The translations under genes and the position numbers were made by a program. A DNA stretch of 64,000 nt, taken from assembly GCA_003599425.1 (NCBI GenBank), contig QZKC01000068.1, positions 11,667 to 75,666 of the forward strand, read 5' to 3'. Shown one piece after another: positions 1 to 64,000 of this stretch. The first letter of the stretch is position 1. Each line of letters begins with the position of its first letter. Under the pieces are notes generated by a model. That model was not told the origin of the DNA. It saw nothing but the letters and a program-made list of their open reading frames with translations, and ran no database searches. This DNA is from Nitrospiraceae bacterium. Its GTDB lineage: Bacteria; Nitrospirota; Thermodesulfovibrionia; UBA6902.

Positions 1-1841
1 GTCATTTTTGCTTTTCCCTGGGCATTCTCTGCAAGCCATGAGCATAACTGTACAAACGGCTTCCCTTCGGGCCTAAGCTTTTCTGCTATTTTCAGCAGGA
101 AGTCCGTCCTTGATGCATCAAGCATCCATTGTCCCACTTCCCCCCAGAGTTCTGTGAACCTGATCTCTCCCTCTGCGCCAGTCTCTTTCCTGGCGCTCTG
201 TTCAGTAAGGATCTCCTCAAGTTCTTTAAAAGCTTCTTTTGGCGGCTGATTCCCATACACAAGTTCCTTGAGAAGAGCAACAGATTCCTTTATCCTTCCT
301 TCCTGCCGGTAAAGCTTTGAAAGGACCAGAAGCGCCTCGTCATAGAGTGAAGAATCAATATATTTCTTTCTCACGTCTTCAAGGGTCGCGATCGATTCCT
401 TGAGCTTCCCCTGTTTCAAATAAGCAAGGGAAACATTAAAGAGCGCATTCACTTTTACCTTTAGATTTCTTGTGAAAACGATCGACTGGAAATATTCAAC
501 TGCCTGCGCAAAGTTAGCTTCTTCCATTTCAATAAGTCCGAGACTGAGCCGTGCCTGGTCCCTGAAAGGTCCGCTTTCGATCGCCTGAAGAAGTTTCCTC
601 GCATCATTCGGCTTTCCAGTCATGCGCAGGTTTTCCGCCAGATAAAAATAAGTCTCAGGCGACCTTTCGGGATATGTACTGTCTGCTATCATCGCATTCG
701 CGTATACCTTGCGGGCCTCTTCGACCTTTTCAAGCTTCTGTAACGCGTTAGCCATATTAAAAAGGACCTCAGGGCTCCGCCCTGCTTTTTCATAATATTC
801 CACTGATTCGGCAAAAGACCCTGTCTCGGATAAACTGTTTGCCAGGCCGAGGTGGGCCTTCTGAATATATTTTGATGAAGGAAAATCTCTGATGAAGATC
901 AGATAGTTCAACTTAGCTTCATAGTAAAACCCGAGTTTCGAATATACTTCTGCTCTTCTGAAAAAAGAAACTTCCTTGATCTTTTCATCAGATGCATGCA
1001 CATATGCAAGCCTTAGCTGTTCTATGGCCCCGAGATAGTTTCCTGCAGCAAATAAGGCATCCCCGTAAAGGAGGTGATAGGGGGCAAGATAAGCCGCATC
1101 AGAGGGCCTCGAGGATGACAGTTGTGCTATTGCTCTGAAAGGGTTATTCTCTTTTTTCATCACCTCCCACGCTTTCTTTAACGTGTCCGGCAATAACACG
1201 CCGTCCTCGCTCCATTGCTGCTCAGGATTTGATGTGTTGTTGTCATCAGGATGTTTTTCATGATCTGTATTTTCTTTTTGCCGTATGGTTGAGGCTTCGG
1301 CTGACGAGGGACCCAAAAAGGAAACCGGCTCACTATATTTATTCCGCTTCTTTGTTTCATCATTCAGATTGGCATCTTTTGTCCTGACAGTCGTTTTCTC
1401 GTCGTCTCTATTTACCGTTCTGGTTTTATCCTTGTTGGAAGCACTGTTATCTTTTTTCTCTTTCGTGTTTTGAGTTTTTTTGTGTATATCGATTACAAGC
1501 CTGCTCGGCTCATCAAGAGAGAAGACTTTTATGTCGCCGGGATTTTTCAGTTTAATTATGACAGTGTCATTATTTTTCTGATACGGGAGCTTCATTTTCC
1601 CCGGTTCAATTGTGAAATCTGTTTCAGAGAATTTAACGTTTATTTCTTCGTTGCCCTGTTCTACTTTTCCTGAACCTATCAGAACTTCTGGGCCTTCCAG
1701 TACAATCCTCAGGAATTTACCATGATCAAATGCCCTTATCTTCATAAGGGACTCGCCATTATTCAATGATGATGCATTTGAAATTTCCGGAGAGTAAGTG
1801 AGCAGTAACAGGCATGATAGAATTACATACAGAACATTCAT
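1..1841 (-). CDS. Secreted AMIN-domain / TPR-repeat protein (partial; C-terminus beyond window start)
   Basis: Manual minus-strand translation from ATG at 1841..1839 reads without stops to position 1. N-terminal signal peptide MNVLYVILSCLLLLTYSPEISNAS. AMIN-like domain (KIRAFDHGKFLRIVLEG...PSRLVIDIHK). Long K/E/T/N-rich low-complexity linker. Multiple TPR-like repeats in the C-terminal half (AYLAPYHLLYGDALFAAGNYLGAIEQLRLA...). Absent from the ORF track because no stop codon falls inside the window. Confidence 0.7.
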   Translation of the reverse strand, partial: MNVLYVILSCLLLLTYSPEISNASSLNNGESLMKIRAFDHGKFLRIVLEGPEVLIGSGKVEQGNEEINVKFSETDFTIEPGKMKLPYQKNNDTVIIKLKNPGDIKVFSLDEPSRLVIDIHKKTQNTKEKKDNSASNKDKTRTVNRDDEKTTVRTKDANLNDETKKRNKYSEPVSFLGPSSAEASTIRQKENTDHEKHPDDNNTSNPEQQWSEDGVLLPDTLKKAWEVMKKENNPFRAIAQLSSSRPSDAAYLAPYHLLYGDALFAAGNYLGAIEQLRLAYVHASDEKIKEVSFFRRAEVYSKLGFYYEAKLNYLIFIRDFPSSKYIQKAHLGLANSLSETGSFAESVEYYEKAGRSPEVLFNMANALQKLEKVEEARKVYANAMIADSTYPERSPETYFYLAENLRMTGKPNDARKLLQAIESGPFRDQARLSLGLIEMEEANFAQAVEYFQSIVFTRNLKVKVNALFNVSLAYLKQGKLKESIATLEDVRKKYIDSSLYDEALLVLSKLYRQEGRIKESVALLKELVYGNQPPKEAFKELEEILTEQSARKETGAEGEIRFTELWGEVGQWMLDASRTDFLLKIAEKLRPEGKPFVQLCSWLAENAQGKAKM

Positions 1842-2055
1842 GACGGGATATTCCGCAATAAATATGCCAATCTTAACTATTGATATTTAAAAGAAATTAG
1901 ATTTGGCAAGAAGTCATAAAAATGACACCACTGGAAAATATGCCTGAAATGAAAAACAGTCTTGTCAAATCAGGTCGGGCAATGGCAAAACGGGGTTGTC
2001 ACAGAACATAAATTGTGATAAAAGATAGACAGACAATAAACAGGAGGTACACATT

Positions 2056-2676
2056 ATGTCAAATGCTTGTGTATGTTTGGGATGCAATGTTGGCGCAACA
2101 GTTCCTGATTTTAAACTGGAGACTTACGAACCGTCAAAAGGAGATTTCGGAGAAGTGAGCCTCGAAACACTCAGAAAAAACAAAAAATGGACAATACTGT
2201 TCTTTTACCCGGCTGATTTTACCTTTGTCTGAGCTACCGAATTCGCTGCTCTGGCAGAGCAGTATGACAGATTCAAAAAAACGGGTGCCGAAGTCATTAC
2301 AGTAAGCACGGACACTAAGTTCGTTCATCTTGCCTGGCAGAGGGAGGAAAAACAGCTTGAAAAAGTAAAATTCCCTATGGGGTCTGACACAACAGGAAAT
2401 CTTTCACGGACATTCGGGGTGTATGATGAAGCGACAGGACTTGCATTAAGAGGCACTTTTATTATTAGTCCCGAGGGCAAACTGATGAACTCGGAAGTCA
2501 ATTATTATAATCTCGGCAGGAATATTGATGAGCTTATGAGAAAGTTCAAGGCCAACCTCCATCTCGCGAAATATAGTGCCGAGGGATGCCCCGCCAAATG
2601 GAAAGAAGAAGGAGACAAGACTTTGAAACCTTCTGCAAAACTGGTGGGCCGGGTGCATGAGGCTTTGAGCAAATAA
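2056..2676 (+). CDS. Selenocysteine-containing typical 2-Cys peroxiredoxin (AhpC/Prx family); in-frame TGA at 2230..2232 read as Sec
   Basis: AGGAGG at 2041-2046, ATG at 2056. Translation gives ...WTILFFYPADFTFV-TGA-ATEFAALAEQY..., the canonical Prx peroxidatic motif FTFVCPTE with TGA in place of the Cys codon. The frame continues into the track ORF 2377..2676 and ends with the resolving-Cys motif AEGCPAKW. A stem-loop lies 13-30 nt downstream of the TGA. Confidence 0.8.
2239..2274 (+). other. SECIS-like stem-loop downstream of the in-frame UGA of the peroxiredoxin
   Basis: Lower stem GAAU(2239-2242)/AUUC(2271-2274). Upper stem GCUGCUC(2245-2251)/GAGCAGU(2257-2263). Apical loop UGGCA has a G in its second position, about 20 nt from the UGA. 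Confidence 0.5.
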
Positions 2677-6084: not shown

Positions 6085-7302
6085 GTGAAGACAACAGAGA
6101 TTAAACCGGGTATATTCTGGGTAGGCGCGATAGACTGGGCAGTAAGAGATTTCCATGGTTATATAACTCCAAAAGGAACGACATATAACAACTATCTTAT
6201 AATGGATGATCAGGTCACTCTTGTTGATACTGTAAAGCATGATTTTTCTCATATGACGGTAGAAAACATCTCGAGCCTCGTTGATCCTTCGAAGATCATC
6301 AATCTTGTGATAAACCATATTGAACCGGACCATGCAAGCAGCATTGACAAGATAATGTCTCTTGCTCCTGAAGCTACCATTTATATCACAGATAAGGGTA
6401 AAAAGGGACTCGACAGACATTTCGACACCTCTAAATGGAAGTTCAACATCGTAAAATCAGGCCACACTTTGAAAACCGGAAAATACACGCTCACATTTCT
6501 CGAAACGCCGATGCTTCACTGGCCTGACTCGATGATGACGTATGTAAACGAAGCAAAACTCCTCATTTCCCAGGATGCCTTTGGGCAGCATATTGCAACA
6601 TCTGCACGGTTCGACGAAGAGTTTATTGAGTGTGCATCTCATTCAGAGCTCGAAGATTCTGTAGTTGACTATTACGCAAATATACTCATGCCTTTTGGGG
6701 AGCTGATAAAAAATAAAATAGCTGAAGTGCAGAAACTCGGACTGAAAATAGACATGATCGCCCCAGACCACGGAGTGATCTGGAAAAAAGAAGCCGGGAA
6801 CATCATTCAGAAATATCTCGACCTTGCAAATGGCAAGTCGTCACTGAGCATTGCAATAATCTATGACACCATGTGGCACAGCACAGAGCTGATGACCATT
6901 CCCATCATGCAGGGGATCAAGGATGAAGGTATCGACTGCAAAGTAATCAAGCTGCGTGCAACGCCTATGAGCGTAGCCATAAAGGAATTCTGGAAATCAA
7001 GAGGCTGCCTGATCGGCAGTCCCACCCTGAACAATATACTCTTTCCCTCTGTTGCTGAATATCTGACCCATCTAAAAGGTCTTCGACCGAAGAACAGGAT
7101 GATAGGAGCATTCGGAAGCTATGGATGGGGAGGAGGCGCTGTTAGAGAAGCATATGAGGAATTCAAGAAGATGAAACTCGAGATATATGAGCCCGGGTTA
7201 CAGGTGCTTTACAAGCCTTCCCAGAAAGATAACGAAATGTGTTATGATTTTGGCAGGAATTTTGCCAAAAAGATTAAGGAATACCACACCAACTTCAATT
7301 AA
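6085..7302 (+). CDS. Flavodiiron protein (FprA / rubredoxin:oxygen oxidoreductase family)
   Basis: GTG start with AGGAGG at 6073-6078. N-terminus GIFWVGAIDWAVRDFHGYITPKGTTYNNYLI is the class-A FDP metallo-beta-lactamase-like signature. C-terminal flavodoxin-like part. 405 aa. Confidence 0.85.
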   Translation: MKTTEIKPGIFWVGAIDWAVRDFHGYITPKGTTYNNYLIMDDQVTLVDTVKHDFSHMTVENISSLVDPSKIINLVINHIEPDHASSIDKIMSLAPEATIYITDKGKKGLDRHFDTSKWKFNIVKSGHTLKTGKYTLTFLETPMLHWPDSMMTYVNEAKLLISQDAFGQHIATSARFDEEFIECASHSELEDSVVDYYANILMPFGELIKNKIAEVQKLGLKIDMIAPDHGVIWKKEAGNIIQKYLDLANGKSSLSIAIIYDTMWHSTELMTIPIMQGIKDEGIDCKVIKLRATPMSVAIKEFWKSRGCLIGSPTLNNILFPSVAEYLTHLKGLRPKNRMIGAFGSYGWGGGAVREAYEEFKKMKLEIYEPGLQVLYKPSQKDNEMCYDFGRNFAKKIKEYHTNFN

Positions 7303-32473: not shown

Positions 32474-33898
32474 ATGCATAAGGCAACACTTGAAAGGCTG
32501 ATAAAAGAACTTACCCATTCCGATCCTTCGGGAAGGCGCTGCGCTGCGGAAGCGCTTTCCGAAGGTGATGAACGTGCTGTTTTCCCTTTACTGAAGGCAT
32601 TACACGACAGCAATTTAGGAGTGCAGGATGCCGCAATAAAGTCTCTTATGCGCATGAAAAACGAGACGACAGCGTATATGGTTATCCCCCTTCTCAGAGA
32701 AGATGTGTTTCTCAGGAATACAGCTTTGATCATCCTTAGGGAAATGGGAACCATTGCCATTCCGCTCATCCGAGCACTTCTGAACGATAAAGATGATGAT
32801 GTCAGAAAATTCGCTATTGACCTCATTTATGACATTAATTATTGCGATTATCCCGACAAACTGCTTGAAATACTCATGAACGATCCTAATGCAAATGTAC
32901 GTGCGTCTGCAGCGAAGACTCTGGGAAAACTGAACTTAAAGGAAGCAGTGCCATACCTTATCAAAGCTCTTAATGATGAAGAGTGGGTTTGTTTCTCCGC
33001 GCTCGAAGCGCTAACCGTGCTCAAAGACAACAGTGCAATCGCCCCTATCCTTGCATTGTCAGCGAGTCCTTCAGAAGCAATAAGGCTCGCAATGCTTGAA
33101 ACTCTAGGCAAGATAGGCTCTCAGGACATCCAGAAATTTTTAGCAGAACATGTATCAAAATCCAGCGGCCTCGAAAAACGGGCTGCCATTATAAGCCTTG
33201 TACAGTTAGGTATGATTCCTCCCTCAATGGACATCTTTGATGAACTTATCGATATGCTGATAACCAGTGACTGGGACGATAAGTATGTGGCTATCAAGGG
33301 ACTGCTTATTCTCAGAGATGAACGAGCTATTTACCATATGATAGATGTTGCCGGATCGATCGATTATTCAGCACCTGACAGACACGAAAAAATCCAGTTT
33401 ATCAGAGAAGCTGTAAGCAGCTTCGGGTGCAACAGATATCTATGTTCAATTCTTGACGATAATACAATGAGGTACAGAGGGAAGTCACTCGCTATTGAAA
33501 TAGCAGGTGATTTAAAGTGTCACTCAGTGGTTGACTCTCTTATAAAGCTTATAAAAAGCAATTCCAGAGACATAAGAAGGTCAAGCGTAGAATCGCTCGG
33601 AAAAATAGACAGCGGAAAGGCTCGCGATTACCTGTTTGAGGCAATCAGGGACCACGACAGCCACGTCAGGAAGTCTGCCGTTATAGCCCTTGGGAAGATA
33701 TGTGAAATGTCTGCATTTGAACCTCTCATGAAATTGCTCAACAAAGAAGTTTACTACGATGTTATCGATGAGATCATAAAATCGCTCCTTCAAATAAATG
33801 CGACTCTTTTTTTATCGCGTATCGGAGAATTGAACGATCAGATACGTAAAGTTGCAGCCAGACATGCACCGCTGTGTAACCCGGAGAGTTCATGCTGA
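32474..33898 (+). CDS. HEAT-repeat (PBS-lyase-like) protein, first gene of the che operon
   Basis: 474 aa of tandem HEAT-like repeats (RCAAEALSEGDERAVFPLLKALHD, VRASAAKTLGKLNLKEAVPYLIKALND, VRKSAVIALGKI). The stop overlaps the cheR start. Confidence 0.7.
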   Translation: MHKATLERLIKELTHSDPSGRRCAAEALSEGDERAVFPLLKALHDSNLGVQDAAIKSLMRMKNETTAYMVIPLLREDVFLRNTALIILREMGTIAIPLIRALLNDKDDDVRKFAIDLIYDINYCDYPDKLLEILMNDPNANVRASAAKTLGKLNLKEAVPYLIKALNDEEWVCFSALEALTVLKDNSAIAPILALSASPSEAIRLAMLETLGKIGSQDIQKFLAEHVSKSSGLEKRAAIISLVQLGMIPPSMDIFDELIDMLITSDWDDKYVAIKGLLILRDERAIYHMIDVAGSIDYSAPDRHEKIQFIREAVSSFGCNRYLCSILDDNTMRYRGKSLAIEIAGDLKCHSVVDSLIKLIKSNSRDIRRSSVESLGKIDSGKARDYLFEAIRDHDSHVRKSAVIALGKICEMSAFEPLMKLLNKEVYYDVIDEIIKSLLQINATLFLSRIGELNDQIRKVAARHAPLCNPESSC

Positions 33899-34716
33899 AC
33901 ATATTGCTCGCTGATTCAACATTCAATGAACTGCGGAATTATATTTATGAAAAATGCGGCATCTATATAACGGACACAAAGAAATATCTTGTCGAGAACA
34001 GGCTTTCAAGGATCCTGCAGGAAAAGAACCTGAACAATTTTGAAGAATATCTGAAACTTCTGAAATACAGTACGAACGGCAATGAGCTCAGCAGGCTCTT
34101 TGATGCGGTCACAACAAATGAAACGTATTTCTTCAGGGAACCGGACCAACTGCATGTTTTTCAGAACGAGATAATACCGAGGATCATCAGCCAGAAAAGA
34201 AATCCCCAGCAGTTAAAGATATGGTCTGCAGCATGCTCTTCCGGAGAAGAACCATATACGCTTTCAATGATGCTCCACGAAAAAGGGTACCATGCTAAGC
34301 AATTTGAAATATACGGCTCGGATATCAGTGAAACTGTGCTGCAATCAGCAAAAAGAGCTGTCTACAACTCATATTCAGTAAGAAACGTTCCTGTAGCATA
34401 TGCCAGAAAATACTTTTCATGCACAGGACAAACATACGCTCTCGATGAATCCATTAAAAATAGCGTCAAATTCATGAAGATAAACCTCATTGATGATAAG
34501 AACACGAGACTGCTGCGCAATTCAGATATAATCTTCTGTCGCAATGTACTCATTTATTTTGACGTTAAATCCAAACAGAAGGTTGCATCGCTCCTGTACG
34601 ACTGTTTAAATCCAGGAGGATATCTCTTAATAGGGGCCTCGGAAAGTCTCCATAATATCACAAGAGCTTTCAGGCCTAATATTTTAAATAAAGTGATCGC
34701 TTATCAGAAGGTTTGA
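33892..34716 (+). CDS. cheR: Chemotaxis protein methyltransferase CheR
   Basis: TNETYFFREPDQLHVF and the SAM-binding IWSAACSSGEEPYTLSMML. Confidence 0.9.
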   Translation: MLNILLADSTFNELRNYIYEKCGIYITDTKKYLVENRLSRILQEKNLNNFEEYLKLLKYSTNGNELSRLFDAVTTNETYFFREPDQLHVFQNEIIPRIISQKRNPQQLKIWSAACSSGEEPYTLSMMLHEKGYHAKQFEIYGSDISETVLQSAKRAVYNSYSVRNVPVAYARKYFSCTGQTYALDESIKNSVKFMKINLIDDKNTRLLRNSDIIFCRNVLIYFDVKSKQKVASLLYDCLNPGGYLLIGASESLHNITRAFRPNILNKVIAYQKV

Positions 34717-34764
34717 AATGATACTGATAATTTTTACATATGGAATGTGTTTCGGGGGGATATT

Positions 34765-35145
34765 ATGATAATTATGATCGTTGATGATTGCCAGACAACG
34801 AGGAAATTACTGGGCCATTATCTGAAATCGAGGGGATACAATGTAGTGTTCGCAGAAAACGGTCTTGATGCCCTTGAAAAGCTCGTAAGTGAAAAAGTAA
34901 ACCTTATCATGACAGACCTTAATATGCCGTATATGGATGGCATGGAGCTGATAAAAGCGCTGAAAACTGATCCGAGCCTGTCAGCAATACCGATCTTGAT
35001 GGTAACTACTGAAAACGATGCGTCAGAGAAAGAAAAAGCCATGCATTTCGGAGCAGACGGTTACCTGGTCAAACCCGTTACCGGAGACGCAATAGCTGAG
35101 AACATCAAATCAATTTTAAAACACATGTTTGTTCAAGGAGGTTAG
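34765..35145 (+). CDS. CheY-like single-domain response regulator
   Basis: Receiver-domain motifs ([24 protein letters not shown]). ATG at 34765 after GGGGGA. The track ORF begins at an upstream in-frame GTG. Confidence 0.8.
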
Positions 35146-62956: not shown

Positions 62957-63388
62957 CTACTCAGTAACCGCGTCAAAGACGATAATTTTATCATGGGGGA
63001 ATGTCATAAAGGCCCTGCCTCCTGCTTTCACTCCGCTGCCCGGTTCAGACATGCCCTTCATATTCACTCCTTTCCACACAAAATCCACCCAGTTGAATGA
63101 ACCGGCCGGTTCCACCACAGAGACAGTTACTTCAAATTCATCTTTCGTATTGTTACTGTGTATGAACACATCTTCCGGCCTGATGCCTATTATCAGCTTC
63201 TTTGTCTGAATACTCTTCAATTCAGGCGACGTCATGATCCCGTTACAGTTAATTTTAAATGTTTCATTACTGTGTACTTCAGCCGGGATAAAATTCATGG
63301 GAGGGCTCCCGATGAAACCCGCAACAAATATATTTGCCGGTGAGATAAACTTCCGAGGGACGGTCGCACTGCTGTATTTCGCCTTCAT
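62957..63388 (-). pseudogene. Stand-alone C-terminal (TOBE/regulatory) fragment of a MalK/UgpC-type sugar ABC-transporter ATPase
   Basis: The ORF begins at NIFVAGFIGSPPMNF, which in MalK is the linker following the ABC domain. No Walker A, Walker B or signature motifs anywhere upstream. Confidence 0.5.
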
Positions 63389-63415
63389 TCAGAACTGCAA
63401 CCCTGTCCGAAAGGC

Positions 63416-64000
63416 TCATCGCCCTTTCTGCACAATTCCTGTATTTGCCGCTCCGGCAAGAAGGCTTACCATGCCTATCGCTGCAAATATATCCCTGCTC
63501 AGGCCGAATATGCTGCCGAATGCATTTCCCGCTGTCGTGCCCACAAAAAATATAGGCGTCACTATTCCTCCGCTTCCGCCAAAACCGAGCGTTATGGAAG
63601 TGAACAGCATTTTCAGGAGAAAAGCCCCTGCCGGAACATCACCTCCCTCAAGAGATGTCTTGATGGTGTCAAGCCCCAGTCCCAGATATCTCGGGGAAAA
63701 TACCAGGGCGAGTATTACCAGGACAGCGCCTCCCCAAAAAGCCTTTTTCAGCTCATGCCAGGCGATCTTTTTGGCAAACCATTCTATCAGGTGCAGGGTC
63801 TCGATAAGCAGCAGAGAACATATCCCGAAGAACACGCCGCTCAGGCACACACGAATAAAATATACGCTCGTGAAGTTGGGAATAAAATACAGAGGCTCGC
63901 TGAAATACGTTACCCCCATTGCAGAGGATACCTGATACCCAACTATACCGGCAACAAATGACGGCAGGAGCACTTCATACAGAAGCCCGCCGACAAAGAG
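63416..64000 (-). CDS. ClC-family chloride channel / H+-Cl- antiporter (partial; N-terminus beyond window end)
   Basis: GFGGSGGIVTPIFFVGTTAGNAFG corresponds to the ClC selectivity-filter region (G.FxP). Polytopic. The ORF continues past position 64000. Confidence 0.6.
   Translation of the reverse strand, partial: LFVGGLLYEVLLPSFVAGIVGYQVSSAMGVTYFSEPLYFIPNFTSVYFIRVCLSGVFFGICSLLLIETLHLIEWFAKKIAWHELKKAFWGGAVLVILALVFSPRYLGLGLDTIKTSLEGGDVPAGAFLLKMLFTSITLGFGGSGGIVTPIFFVGTTAGNAFGSIFGLSRDIFAAIGMVSLLAGAANTGIVQKGR

Follow-up and report, generated by a model that had tools for sequence, protein, structure and literature searches.

A probable selenocysteine-containing 2-Cys peroxiredoxin gene of a Nitrospirota bacterium, with an in-frame UGA at the peroxidatic position

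Near one end of the window (the whole 64-kb stretch of DNA that was analysed) lies a peroxiredoxin gene, prx, whose reading frame is interrupted by a TGA at the codon of the catalytic residue. Is this TGA read as selenocysteine (Sec), as the original prediction had it, or does it mark a gene that has lost its function, a sequence error or a codon with some other meaning? We considered the gene itself, the codon and the RNA structure at the corresponding site in its relatives, the decoding machinery that could be involved and the place of the protein among known peroxiredoxins.

The gene and its active site

Direct translation gave the frame just as it had been described: FFYPADFTFV, the TGA, then ATEFAAL; 147 sense codons separate this TGA, the sole interruption of the frame, from the terminal TAA (Table 1). 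The proposed start, an ATG with AGGAGG upstream, was borne out; the spacer between the two is 8 nt rather than the 10 nt first given. In seven close relatives the ATG is kept together with AGGAGG or AAGGAGG. Apart from such small details of coordinates, the earlier observation was accurate.

The product belongs to the peroxiredoxins by several measures. The Pfam family AhpC-TSA (PF00578) matched residues 12-143 with 130 bits (cut-off 26; 6e-38), and a PDB search returned 142 peroxiredoxin (Prx) chains, the best of them AhpC of Salmonella and E. coli (E ~4e-45). Against the latter (FTFVCPTE) the TGA falls, as predicted, in the column of the peroxidatic Cys (Cp). Residues P52, T56, F57, V58 and R132 are invariant in the alignment of the window protein with database proteins; C178 is invariant in 21 aligned sequences. 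All features of a typical 2-Cys peroxiredoxin of the AhpC/Prx1 type are present, that is the AhpC-TSA fold, the PxxxTxx motif with its Arg and the resolving Cys (Cr), and the peroxidatic position has UGA in place of Cys.

That automated gene callers would split such a gene had been anticipated. Indeed, the JGI metagenome contig on which the window lies, Ga0104756_1000111 (93.8 kb; sample 3300007352), carries a 58-aa gene and a 99-aa gene in its place, and the mechanical list of open reading frames (ORFs) is broken into the same 58-aa and 99-aa pieces.

Table 1. Features of the prx locus and its conserved neighbour (coordinates in the window)
Feature	Position	Strand	Details and basis
Shine-Dalgarno sequence AGGAGG	2042..2047	+	8 nt before ATG; read directly
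Peroxiredoxin CDS	2056..2676	+	206 codons including UGA (Sec59); TAA at 2674-2676; translation, Pfam and PDB matches
N-terminal Cys motif C5-x-C7-L-G-C10	2068..2085	+	Aligned relatives
Active-site motif P52-A-D-F-T56-F-V-U59 (PxxxTxxU)	2209..2232	+	Aligned with PADFTFVC of solved AhpC structures
In-frame UGA, inferred Sec codon at the peroxidatic position	2230..2232	+	Alignment; recurrence in relatives
Predicted SECIS hairpin, 8-bp stem GCUGCUCU/AGAGCAGU, apical loop GGC	2245..2263	+	-11.1 kcal/mol; pairing kept in Sec forms
Catalytic Arg132 codon	2449..2451	+	Aligned with Arg of AhpC ...ADRATF; alignment-invariant
Resolving Cys178 codon (EGCPAKW)	2587..2589	+	Aligned with Cr of AhpC EVCPAKW
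Flavodiiron protein gene	6085..7302	+	Pfam ODP and Flavodoxin_1; conserved prx neighbour in relatives

The UGA codon and the hairpin in relatives

A pseudogene would be the simplest alternative: a Cys codon (TGC or TGT) mutated to TGA, a dead 58-residue peptide left behind and a hairpin present by coincidence. Protein databases seem to agree with it at first sight, as all but two of the 120 best matches are full-length and the closest full-length proteins (the best 20 of the 120, which were aligned) all have Cys at the column. This all-Cys picture is, however, an artefact of gene calling: Sec forms are cut short by gene callers, which leaves Cys forms among the top matches. The 58-aa fragment of the window belongs to a protein cluster of 61 members; of the 15 members listed 14 are 58 aa long, ending at the UGA; the C-terminal pieces of Sec forms are stored as proteins of 99 or 131 aa. 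With Sec forms stored as fragments, searches at the protein level see the Cys forms only.

At the DNA level the same TGA was found again and again. A degenerate pattern demanding TGA at the Cp column, GAYTTYACNTTYGTNTGASCNACNGA, was run on species-representative genomes and matched in at least 120 of them; all 120 loci listed proved by BLASTP to be true peroxiredoxin homologues. A protein-guided scan of metagenome contigs yielded the 80 nearest relatives (68-89% identity), 65 with TGA and 15 with TGC or TGT at the Cp column; since the query itself supplied the patterns for the scan, this ratio describes the neighbourhood of the query and not the whole clade.

Beyond the TGA the frame stays intact and purifying selection on it is strong, which argues against a pseudogene as well. 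For this 3' part we obtained pN of 0.05-0.20 versus pS of 0.64-0.98, with dN/dS of 0.03-0.08 where it could be calculated; 20 comparisons contained zero further stops and indicated the same selection regime as in the 5' part. The synonymous sites of prx are saturated gene-wide (the same range of pS). Damaged-looking relatives do exist, with an extra TAG (loci L139 and L162) or a frameshift (L072), and these would suit a decaying gene.

The stem-loop that had been placed 3' of the UGA is there: GCUGCUCU-GGC-AGAGCAGU starts at the 13th nucleotide (12 nt between), with stem arms at 2245-2252 and 2256-2263 and the loop starting 20 nt after the UGA. In the window sequence alone the evidence for this hairpin is weak, marginally better than chance. 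When the 27-nt hairpin piece was isolated its z-score was -2.5, and 5 of 200 shuffles folded as well; folding of the wider 66-nt region (2225-2290) was no better than that of shuffles (z 0.02), and a hairpin of at least 7 bp at the right place occurred in ~3-11% of shuffled sequences. An Rfam search of the whole window at gathering thresholds brought up neither a SECIS nor any other credible RNA family; a permissive search of positions 2150-2350 gave no SECIS, with chance miRNA and snoRNA matches only. As the single-sequence signal is weak, the significance of the hairpin rests on the comparison with relatives.

In this comparison the hairpin followed the codon. Among 63 distinct TGA forms 98.4% of the hairpin cells are paired, and three of the eight pairs have changes on both sides; none of 500 shuffles reached any of five hairpin measures, and slid registers fell to 16-62% paired. 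In 12 distinct forms with a Cys codon 61.5% of the same cells are paired, a value indistinguishable from shuffles. Two Cys forms, L151 and L158, have a hairpin energy of about -4 kcal/mol, as against -11.1 kcal/mol in the window. Compensation is seen, for instance, in GCUGACCUGGCAGGUCAG (L200), in GCAGCUCUGGCAGAGCUGC (L188) and, in a 52%-identical Desulfovibrio homologue (L112), in GCUGAUUUGGCAAAUCAG.

The third codon positions show the same thing from another side. Those within the stem (alignment columns 24, 27, 33, 36 and 39) hardly change among Sec forms, whereas those flanking the hairpin vary freely; in the loop G30 is invariant and G31 nearly so. In Cys forms, on the other hand, the codons of the peptide Ala-Ala-Leu-Ala-Glu-Gln that follows Cp drift. 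Because the hairpin is kept at synonymous sites only when the codon is UGA, it is, on comparative grounds, an RNA element needed only for the UGA form, i.e. a predicted SECIS; by the same comparison, the Cys forms lose it through synonymous drift.

The original prediction had also included a lower stem, GAAU/AUUC. It is present, yet it is not specific to Sec, as its pairing differs little between the two types (97.9% versus 96.0%); being equally pairable in Cys forms, it was rejected as evidence. The alignments mark this lower stem as a by-product of E-F...F coding.

Sense codons without a hairpin in close relatives had been named beforehand as a sign of a pseudogene. Most relatives turned out to have TGA with the hairpin, and in most of those with a Cys codon the hairpin is gone. 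The exceptions are instructive: L126 and L127 combine TGC with a fully intact hairpin, and in L129, with TGT, the hairpin is two changes off. These states indicate that Sec-to-Cys switches in the clade, where Cys forms are interspersed among Sec forms, are probably recent. A hairpin kept by compensatory changes at synonymous sites in TGA forms only, together with the same TGA in 65 of the 80 nearest relatives and in at least 120 genomes, leaves the pseudogene very improbable, even with no Sec machinery seen within the 64-kb window.

The TGA might also be a sequencing or assembly error, or UGA might be a sense codon (Trp or Gly) throughout the organism; indeed, the full-length JGI call P0253, from a close relative, has W at the position (FTFVWATEF). 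An error would have had to arise independently in dozens of assemblies from different projects, and an enzyme with Trp or Gly as its peroxidatic residue would be inactive. Besides, of the 52 window genes tallied 16 end in TGA and none but prx has an internal TGA, so UGA is not reassigned genome-wide. We give error and general reassignment next to no weight. A scan of the window for in-frame TGA revealed no second selenoprotein gene.

UGA-59 therefore is almost certainly, as judged from the alignments and the recurrence of the codon, selenocysteine at the catalytic position of a peroxiredoxin. We are highly confident that prx represents a genuine gene for a Sec-containing typical 2-Cys peroxiredoxin of the AhpC/Prx1 type, equipped with a SECIS.

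Decoding, genomic setting and proposed function

Decoding of the UGA as Sec assumes that the source genome has the Sec machinery, and support for this comes at the level of the lineage, from the literature. Thermodesulfovibrio genomes were reported to contain complete sets of selA/B/C/D (PMC5389517), and for Nitrospirae a selC that lies inside selB was reported (PMC13188914). Pfam scans of ~40 ORFs of the 64-kb window gave no selA, selB or selD. ARAGORN detected no tRNA of any kind, tRNA-Sec included, in the window, and 60 related loci and flanks were likewise without tRNA-Sec; neither sel genes nor tRNA-Sec were present in the contig flanks L201 and L202 (7.6 kb before and 9.4 kb after the window).

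One could think of yet another reading, in which UGA with its SECIS is decoded as Cys, or as either residue according to the supply of selenium, by a selC* tRNA(Cys) and SelB or a SelB paralogue. Thermodesulfovibrio and contigs of probable Nitrospirae origin were reported to have genes for selC* tRNA(Cys), and in E. coli a selC* tRNA with UCA anticodon inserted Cys at an opal codon (PMC5389517). Moreover, Sec and Cys forms interconvert readily in the clade, L126, L127 and L129 being examples, so that both residues seem to work. Still, all selC*-bearing genomes had complete Sec machinery (PMC5389517), no selC* or other tRNA is present in the window or its flanks, and to keep up UGA and SECIS just for Cys would be an expensive substitute for a plain TGC codon. 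We regard Cys decoding of prx as unlikely; in organisms with selC* the prx UGA might be read as Sec or Cys.

With Sec as the preferred reading, the steps of synthesis and catalysis can be proposed by analogy. According to the established bacterial mechanism, SelB-GTP-Sec-tRNA(Sec) would bind the hairpin as a SECIS and the UGA would be recoded to Sec59. According to peroxiredoxin chemistry, the selenolate of Sec59 would reduce H2O2 or an organic hydroperoxide and be converted to a selenenic acid, which would condense with Cys178 of the partner subunit to a selenenylsulfide. The latter would be recycled by a thioredoxin-type reductant; no ahpF partner, i.e. no AhpF-like flavoprotein, was seen among the scanned ORFs of the 64-kb window.

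The neighbours of prx in relatives belong to an oxidative-stress setting. At least 12 related loci have a gene for a flavodiiron protein (FDP; 62-79% identical) within ~0.1-1.5 kb of their prx; in L125 and L148 a Fur-family regulator is followed by prx with its UGA, along with desulfoferrodoxin and the flavodiiron protein. A Fur regulator, peroxiredoxin, desulfoferrodoxin and flavodiiron protein make up a typical anaerobe cluster for defence against O2 and reactive oxygen species. Thus, the gene content of the prx cluster in relatives (Fur/PerR-family regulator, superoxide reductase, FDP) points to a probable role in O2 and peroxide defence. In the window an opposite-strand block, DAGK-bioW-bioB, stands between prx and the flavodiiron gene.

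Elsewhere in the window Pfam scans identified flagellar and chemotaxis operons, bioW/bioB, genes of glycogen metabolism and ion transporters. Positions 1-1841, seemingly free of ORFs, are the 3' part of a minus-strand gene for an 806-aa TPR protein that extends beyond the window. The one ORF pair in the same frame, 33892-34716 and 34747-35145, was considered as a possible split selenoprotein and rejected; it consists of CheR and then a separate response regulator.

The window's FlhA matches NCBI RJQ45427.1, which comes from a metagenome-assembled genome (MAG) named 'Nitrospiraceae bacterium', with 100% identity, and the next-best matches are all from Nitrospirae/Nitrospirota. The closest named Sec orthologue of the window prx (L072; 89%) comes from a Thermodesulfovibrionia MAG. 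As part of the favoured reading, and with the same high confidence, we take the host to be an anaerobic Nitrospirota bacterium resembling Thermodesulfovibrionia.

What is the significance of one such gene? For biology, it is one more selenoenzyme in the oxidative-stress toolkit of anaerobic Nitrospirota and would not surprise a specialist; Sec-peroxiredoxins have reportedly been known since 2001 and catalogued in surveys of bacterial selenoproteomes. Its practical worth is in annotation, as prx and dozens of its relatives are stored as fragments, and one with Trp at the active site. As there is no curated Sec-aware model for the clade, public annotation systematically splits or mistranslates its members. 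The matched Sec and Cys orthologues, including the TGC copies with a hairpin, also make a clean natural system for the study of Sec/Cys interconversion; the set could be used to define the minimal needs of a SECIS not of the fdhF type and the effect of Sec on peroxidase performance and resistance to over-oxidation.

Comparison with known peroxiredoxins and SECIS elements

Sec-peroxiredoxins had been called rare in the original prediction. This was an overstatement, given the matches in at least 120 species-representative genomes and the catalogues in the literature: a list of 2006 had 12 Sec members and five inferred Cys-to-Sec events (PMC1794560), and one of 2016 had 91 Sec-Prx in 78 organisms (PMC5029168). 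The TxxU family was experimentally founded on PrxU of Eubacterium acidaminophilum, according to a passage of PMC13188914 that cites Sohling 2001. Sec-Prx (TxxU) is an established and widespread bacterial family to which the window prx adds one member. What is new here is modest: the protein is outside the curated PrxU and AhpC models, its SECIS is unlike that of PrxU and its N-terminal Cys motif is conserved in the clade, which spans Nitrospirota, Planctomycetota, Rokubacteria, Krumholzibacteriia and Terriglobia.

The clade stays below the cut-offs of the two curated NCBIfam models from which it might have received a name. For the window protein the PrxU model (NF040737) gave 179.6 bits against a cut-off of 270, and the AhpC model (TIGR03137) 202.1 bits against 272; three PrxU-like sequences from the genome scan had 365-400 bits with NF040737. 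The assignment to Sec-containing 2-Cys peroxiredoxins of the AhpC/Prx1 type is therefore supported, but by the NCBIfam cut-offs the protein is an equivalog of neither PrxU nor AhpC.

PrxU has in common with the window protein (~42% identity) the AhpC-TSA fold, the UGA-coded Sec at the peroxidatic position and the PxxxTxxU motif. Both have a SECIS in the coding sequence just 3' of the UGA and occur in anaerobes, and in both reduction of a thioredoxin type is expected. The differences are as follows. PrxU is without the N-terminal Cys motif, and its resolving Cys is absent in two of three members examined (TEATPSGW), while the window clade retains it. In the genome set dominated by PrxU-like sequences the loop is GGUC or AGUU at 17 nt after the UGA, as opposed to GGC at 20 nt in the window clade, L112 included. 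One could speculate that the clade is a second lineage of Sec-Prx, independent of PrxU, AhpC-like and with its own SECIS, in which the retained resolving Cys would provide an Se-S intersubunit bond; we offer this as a tentative proposal, with the odds rather against it. In this proposal the lineage's own SECIS is an 18-nt sequence almost invariant over Nitrospirota, Planctomycetota, Acidobacteriota, Rokubacteria and Krumholzibacteriia.

The best structural and sequence match to the window protein is AhpC of Salmonella and E. coli (TIGR03137; PDB 1yep, 1yf1, 4o5r). The positions of Cp, Cr and Arg are the same, and so is the C-terminal arm ...CPAKW...TL.PS..LVG..; this agreement indicates that the window protein probably follows the typical 2-Cys mechanism with an intersubunit bond. 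AhpC has Cys at Cp (VCPTE, in comparison with VUATE) and is without the Cys-rich N-terminal extension of ~10 residues.

Closer still are the Cys-type orthologues from Nitrospirota and other anaerobes (P0001-P0022, annotated 'peroxiredoxin'), which are 68-84% identical to the window protein and share its VxATEFAALAEQ segment. They have TGC or TGT at Cp and a hairpin eroded by synonymous changes; those aligned here carry the same N-terminal CC/CxC motif. The N-terminal Cys cluster (C5, C7, C10), regarded earlier as unusual, is real, but it is conserved in the clade rather than unique to the window protein: nearest relatives have CxCLxC, most others have CC(G/S)(L/I), and it is absent in about a quarter. 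It is present in Sec and Cys forms alike, in about three quarters of the members. The CC/CxCxxC motif might serve as an additional redox relay or as a metal site.

The SECIS of E. coli fdhF, with its bulged U and GGUC loop, is the paradigm of bacterial SECIS elements. The window hairpin has no bulged U, has a GGC loop (UGGCA if the closing U-A pair opens) and is unrelated to fdhF in sequence; from the SECIS of the PrxU type, too, it differs in being without the bulged U and the GGUC loop. With the fdhF element it nevertheless shares the general plan, an in-ORF stem-loop that begins ~11-13 nt past the UGA and has G in its apical loop.

Cysteine forms, disrupted selenocysteine forms and stored fragments

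Some Cys forms among the metagenomic relatives of prx, the 2-Cys peroxiredoxin gene of the window, retained the hairpin. Locus L126 carried a TGC codon yet had a perfect SECIS-type hairpin (-11.4 kcal/mol), and L127 was identical; in L129, with a TGT codon, the hairpin was just two changes off. As the nearest neighbours of these three loci were Sec forms, the loci look like recent Sec-to-Cys switches. No such switch was listed for Prx in the 2006 survey (PMC1794560).

Several Sec-form relatives contained further defects: an additional in-frame TAG soon after the UGA in L139 and L162 (in L139 it falls within the hairpin's 3′ arm), and a frameshift near codon 142 in the Thermodesulfovibrionia orthologue L072. 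These could be caused by assembly or long-read errors; they could also mark decaying copies.

Public protein sets hold the family as 58-aa N-terminal and 99- or 131-aa C-terminal fragments. The cluster of N-terminal fragments had 61 members, with a length of 58 aa in 14 of the 15 members listed; in one full-length JGI call, P0253, from a close relative, UGA was translated as Trp (FTFVWATEF).

Gene surroundings

Coordinates of features in the window and in relatives of prx
Feature	Sequence	Coordinates	Strand	Basis
N-terminal Cys motif of prx	window	2068-2085		N-termini of L072 and the 80 nearest metagenomic relatives (L121-L200) compared
Oxidative-stress cluster with Sec-prx	L125	2583-5476		
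Oxidative-stress cluster with Sec-prx	L148	2530-5357		
TGC codon with SECIS-type hairpin	L126	3169-3228		
Segment with imperfect inverted repeat, 5′ of prx	window	2003-2031		
Flavodiiron gene	window	6085-7302		
TPR/AMIN-domain gene, part in window	window	1-1841	-	
ClC-type gene and orphan ORF	window	62957-63997	-	

In the close relatives L125 and L148, a Fur/PerR-family regulator was situated directly 5′ of Sec-prx; on the downstream side were genes for a flavodiiron protein and for the superoxide reductase desulfoferrodoxin. Only the flavodiiron gene of these partners is still near prx in the window, where DAGK-bioW-bioB lie between the two on the opposite strand.

Upstream of prx, the two halves of an imperfect inverted repeat, TTGTCACA and TGTGATAA, lie within TTGTCACAGAACATAAATTGTGATAAAAG; a similar sequence, ...ACATTGTGATAAAGAG, occupies the matching position in relatives L121 and L123. 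This repeat is a candidate operator for a Fur/PerR-type regulator. A simple scan of the + strand found no sigma-70-like promoter.

The left end of the window was rejected as a non-coding region: an 806-aa TPR/AMIN-domain gene spans it, and no ORF was listed there only because this gene runs past the window end. Near the right end lies an orphan 143-aa ORF, in frame with the ClC-type chloride-channel gene that precedes it; two TGA codons, 9 codons apart, stand between them. The ORF contains a MalK-type OB regulatory domain only, and its neighbours include trehalose and glycogen genes. It may be what is left of a gene, or else a regulatory domain that stands alone.

Comparison with AhpC and PrxU

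The N-terminal Cys motif reads CxCLxC in the nearest relatives of prx and CC(G/S)(L/I) in most others, about a quarter having no motif; it is common to Sec and Cys forms. It might add a redox relay or bind a metal. AhpC and PrxU do not have this motif, in contrast to the window clade; of three PrxU members compared, two lacked the resolving Cys.

Hairpins were tallied in the genome loci listed (L001-L120), which are mostly PrxU-like. Among them, apical loops were GGUC (49) or AGUU (32), and for 84 of 111 hairpins the loop started exactly 17 nt past the UGA; the window clade differs from this set in having a GGC loop at 20 nt.
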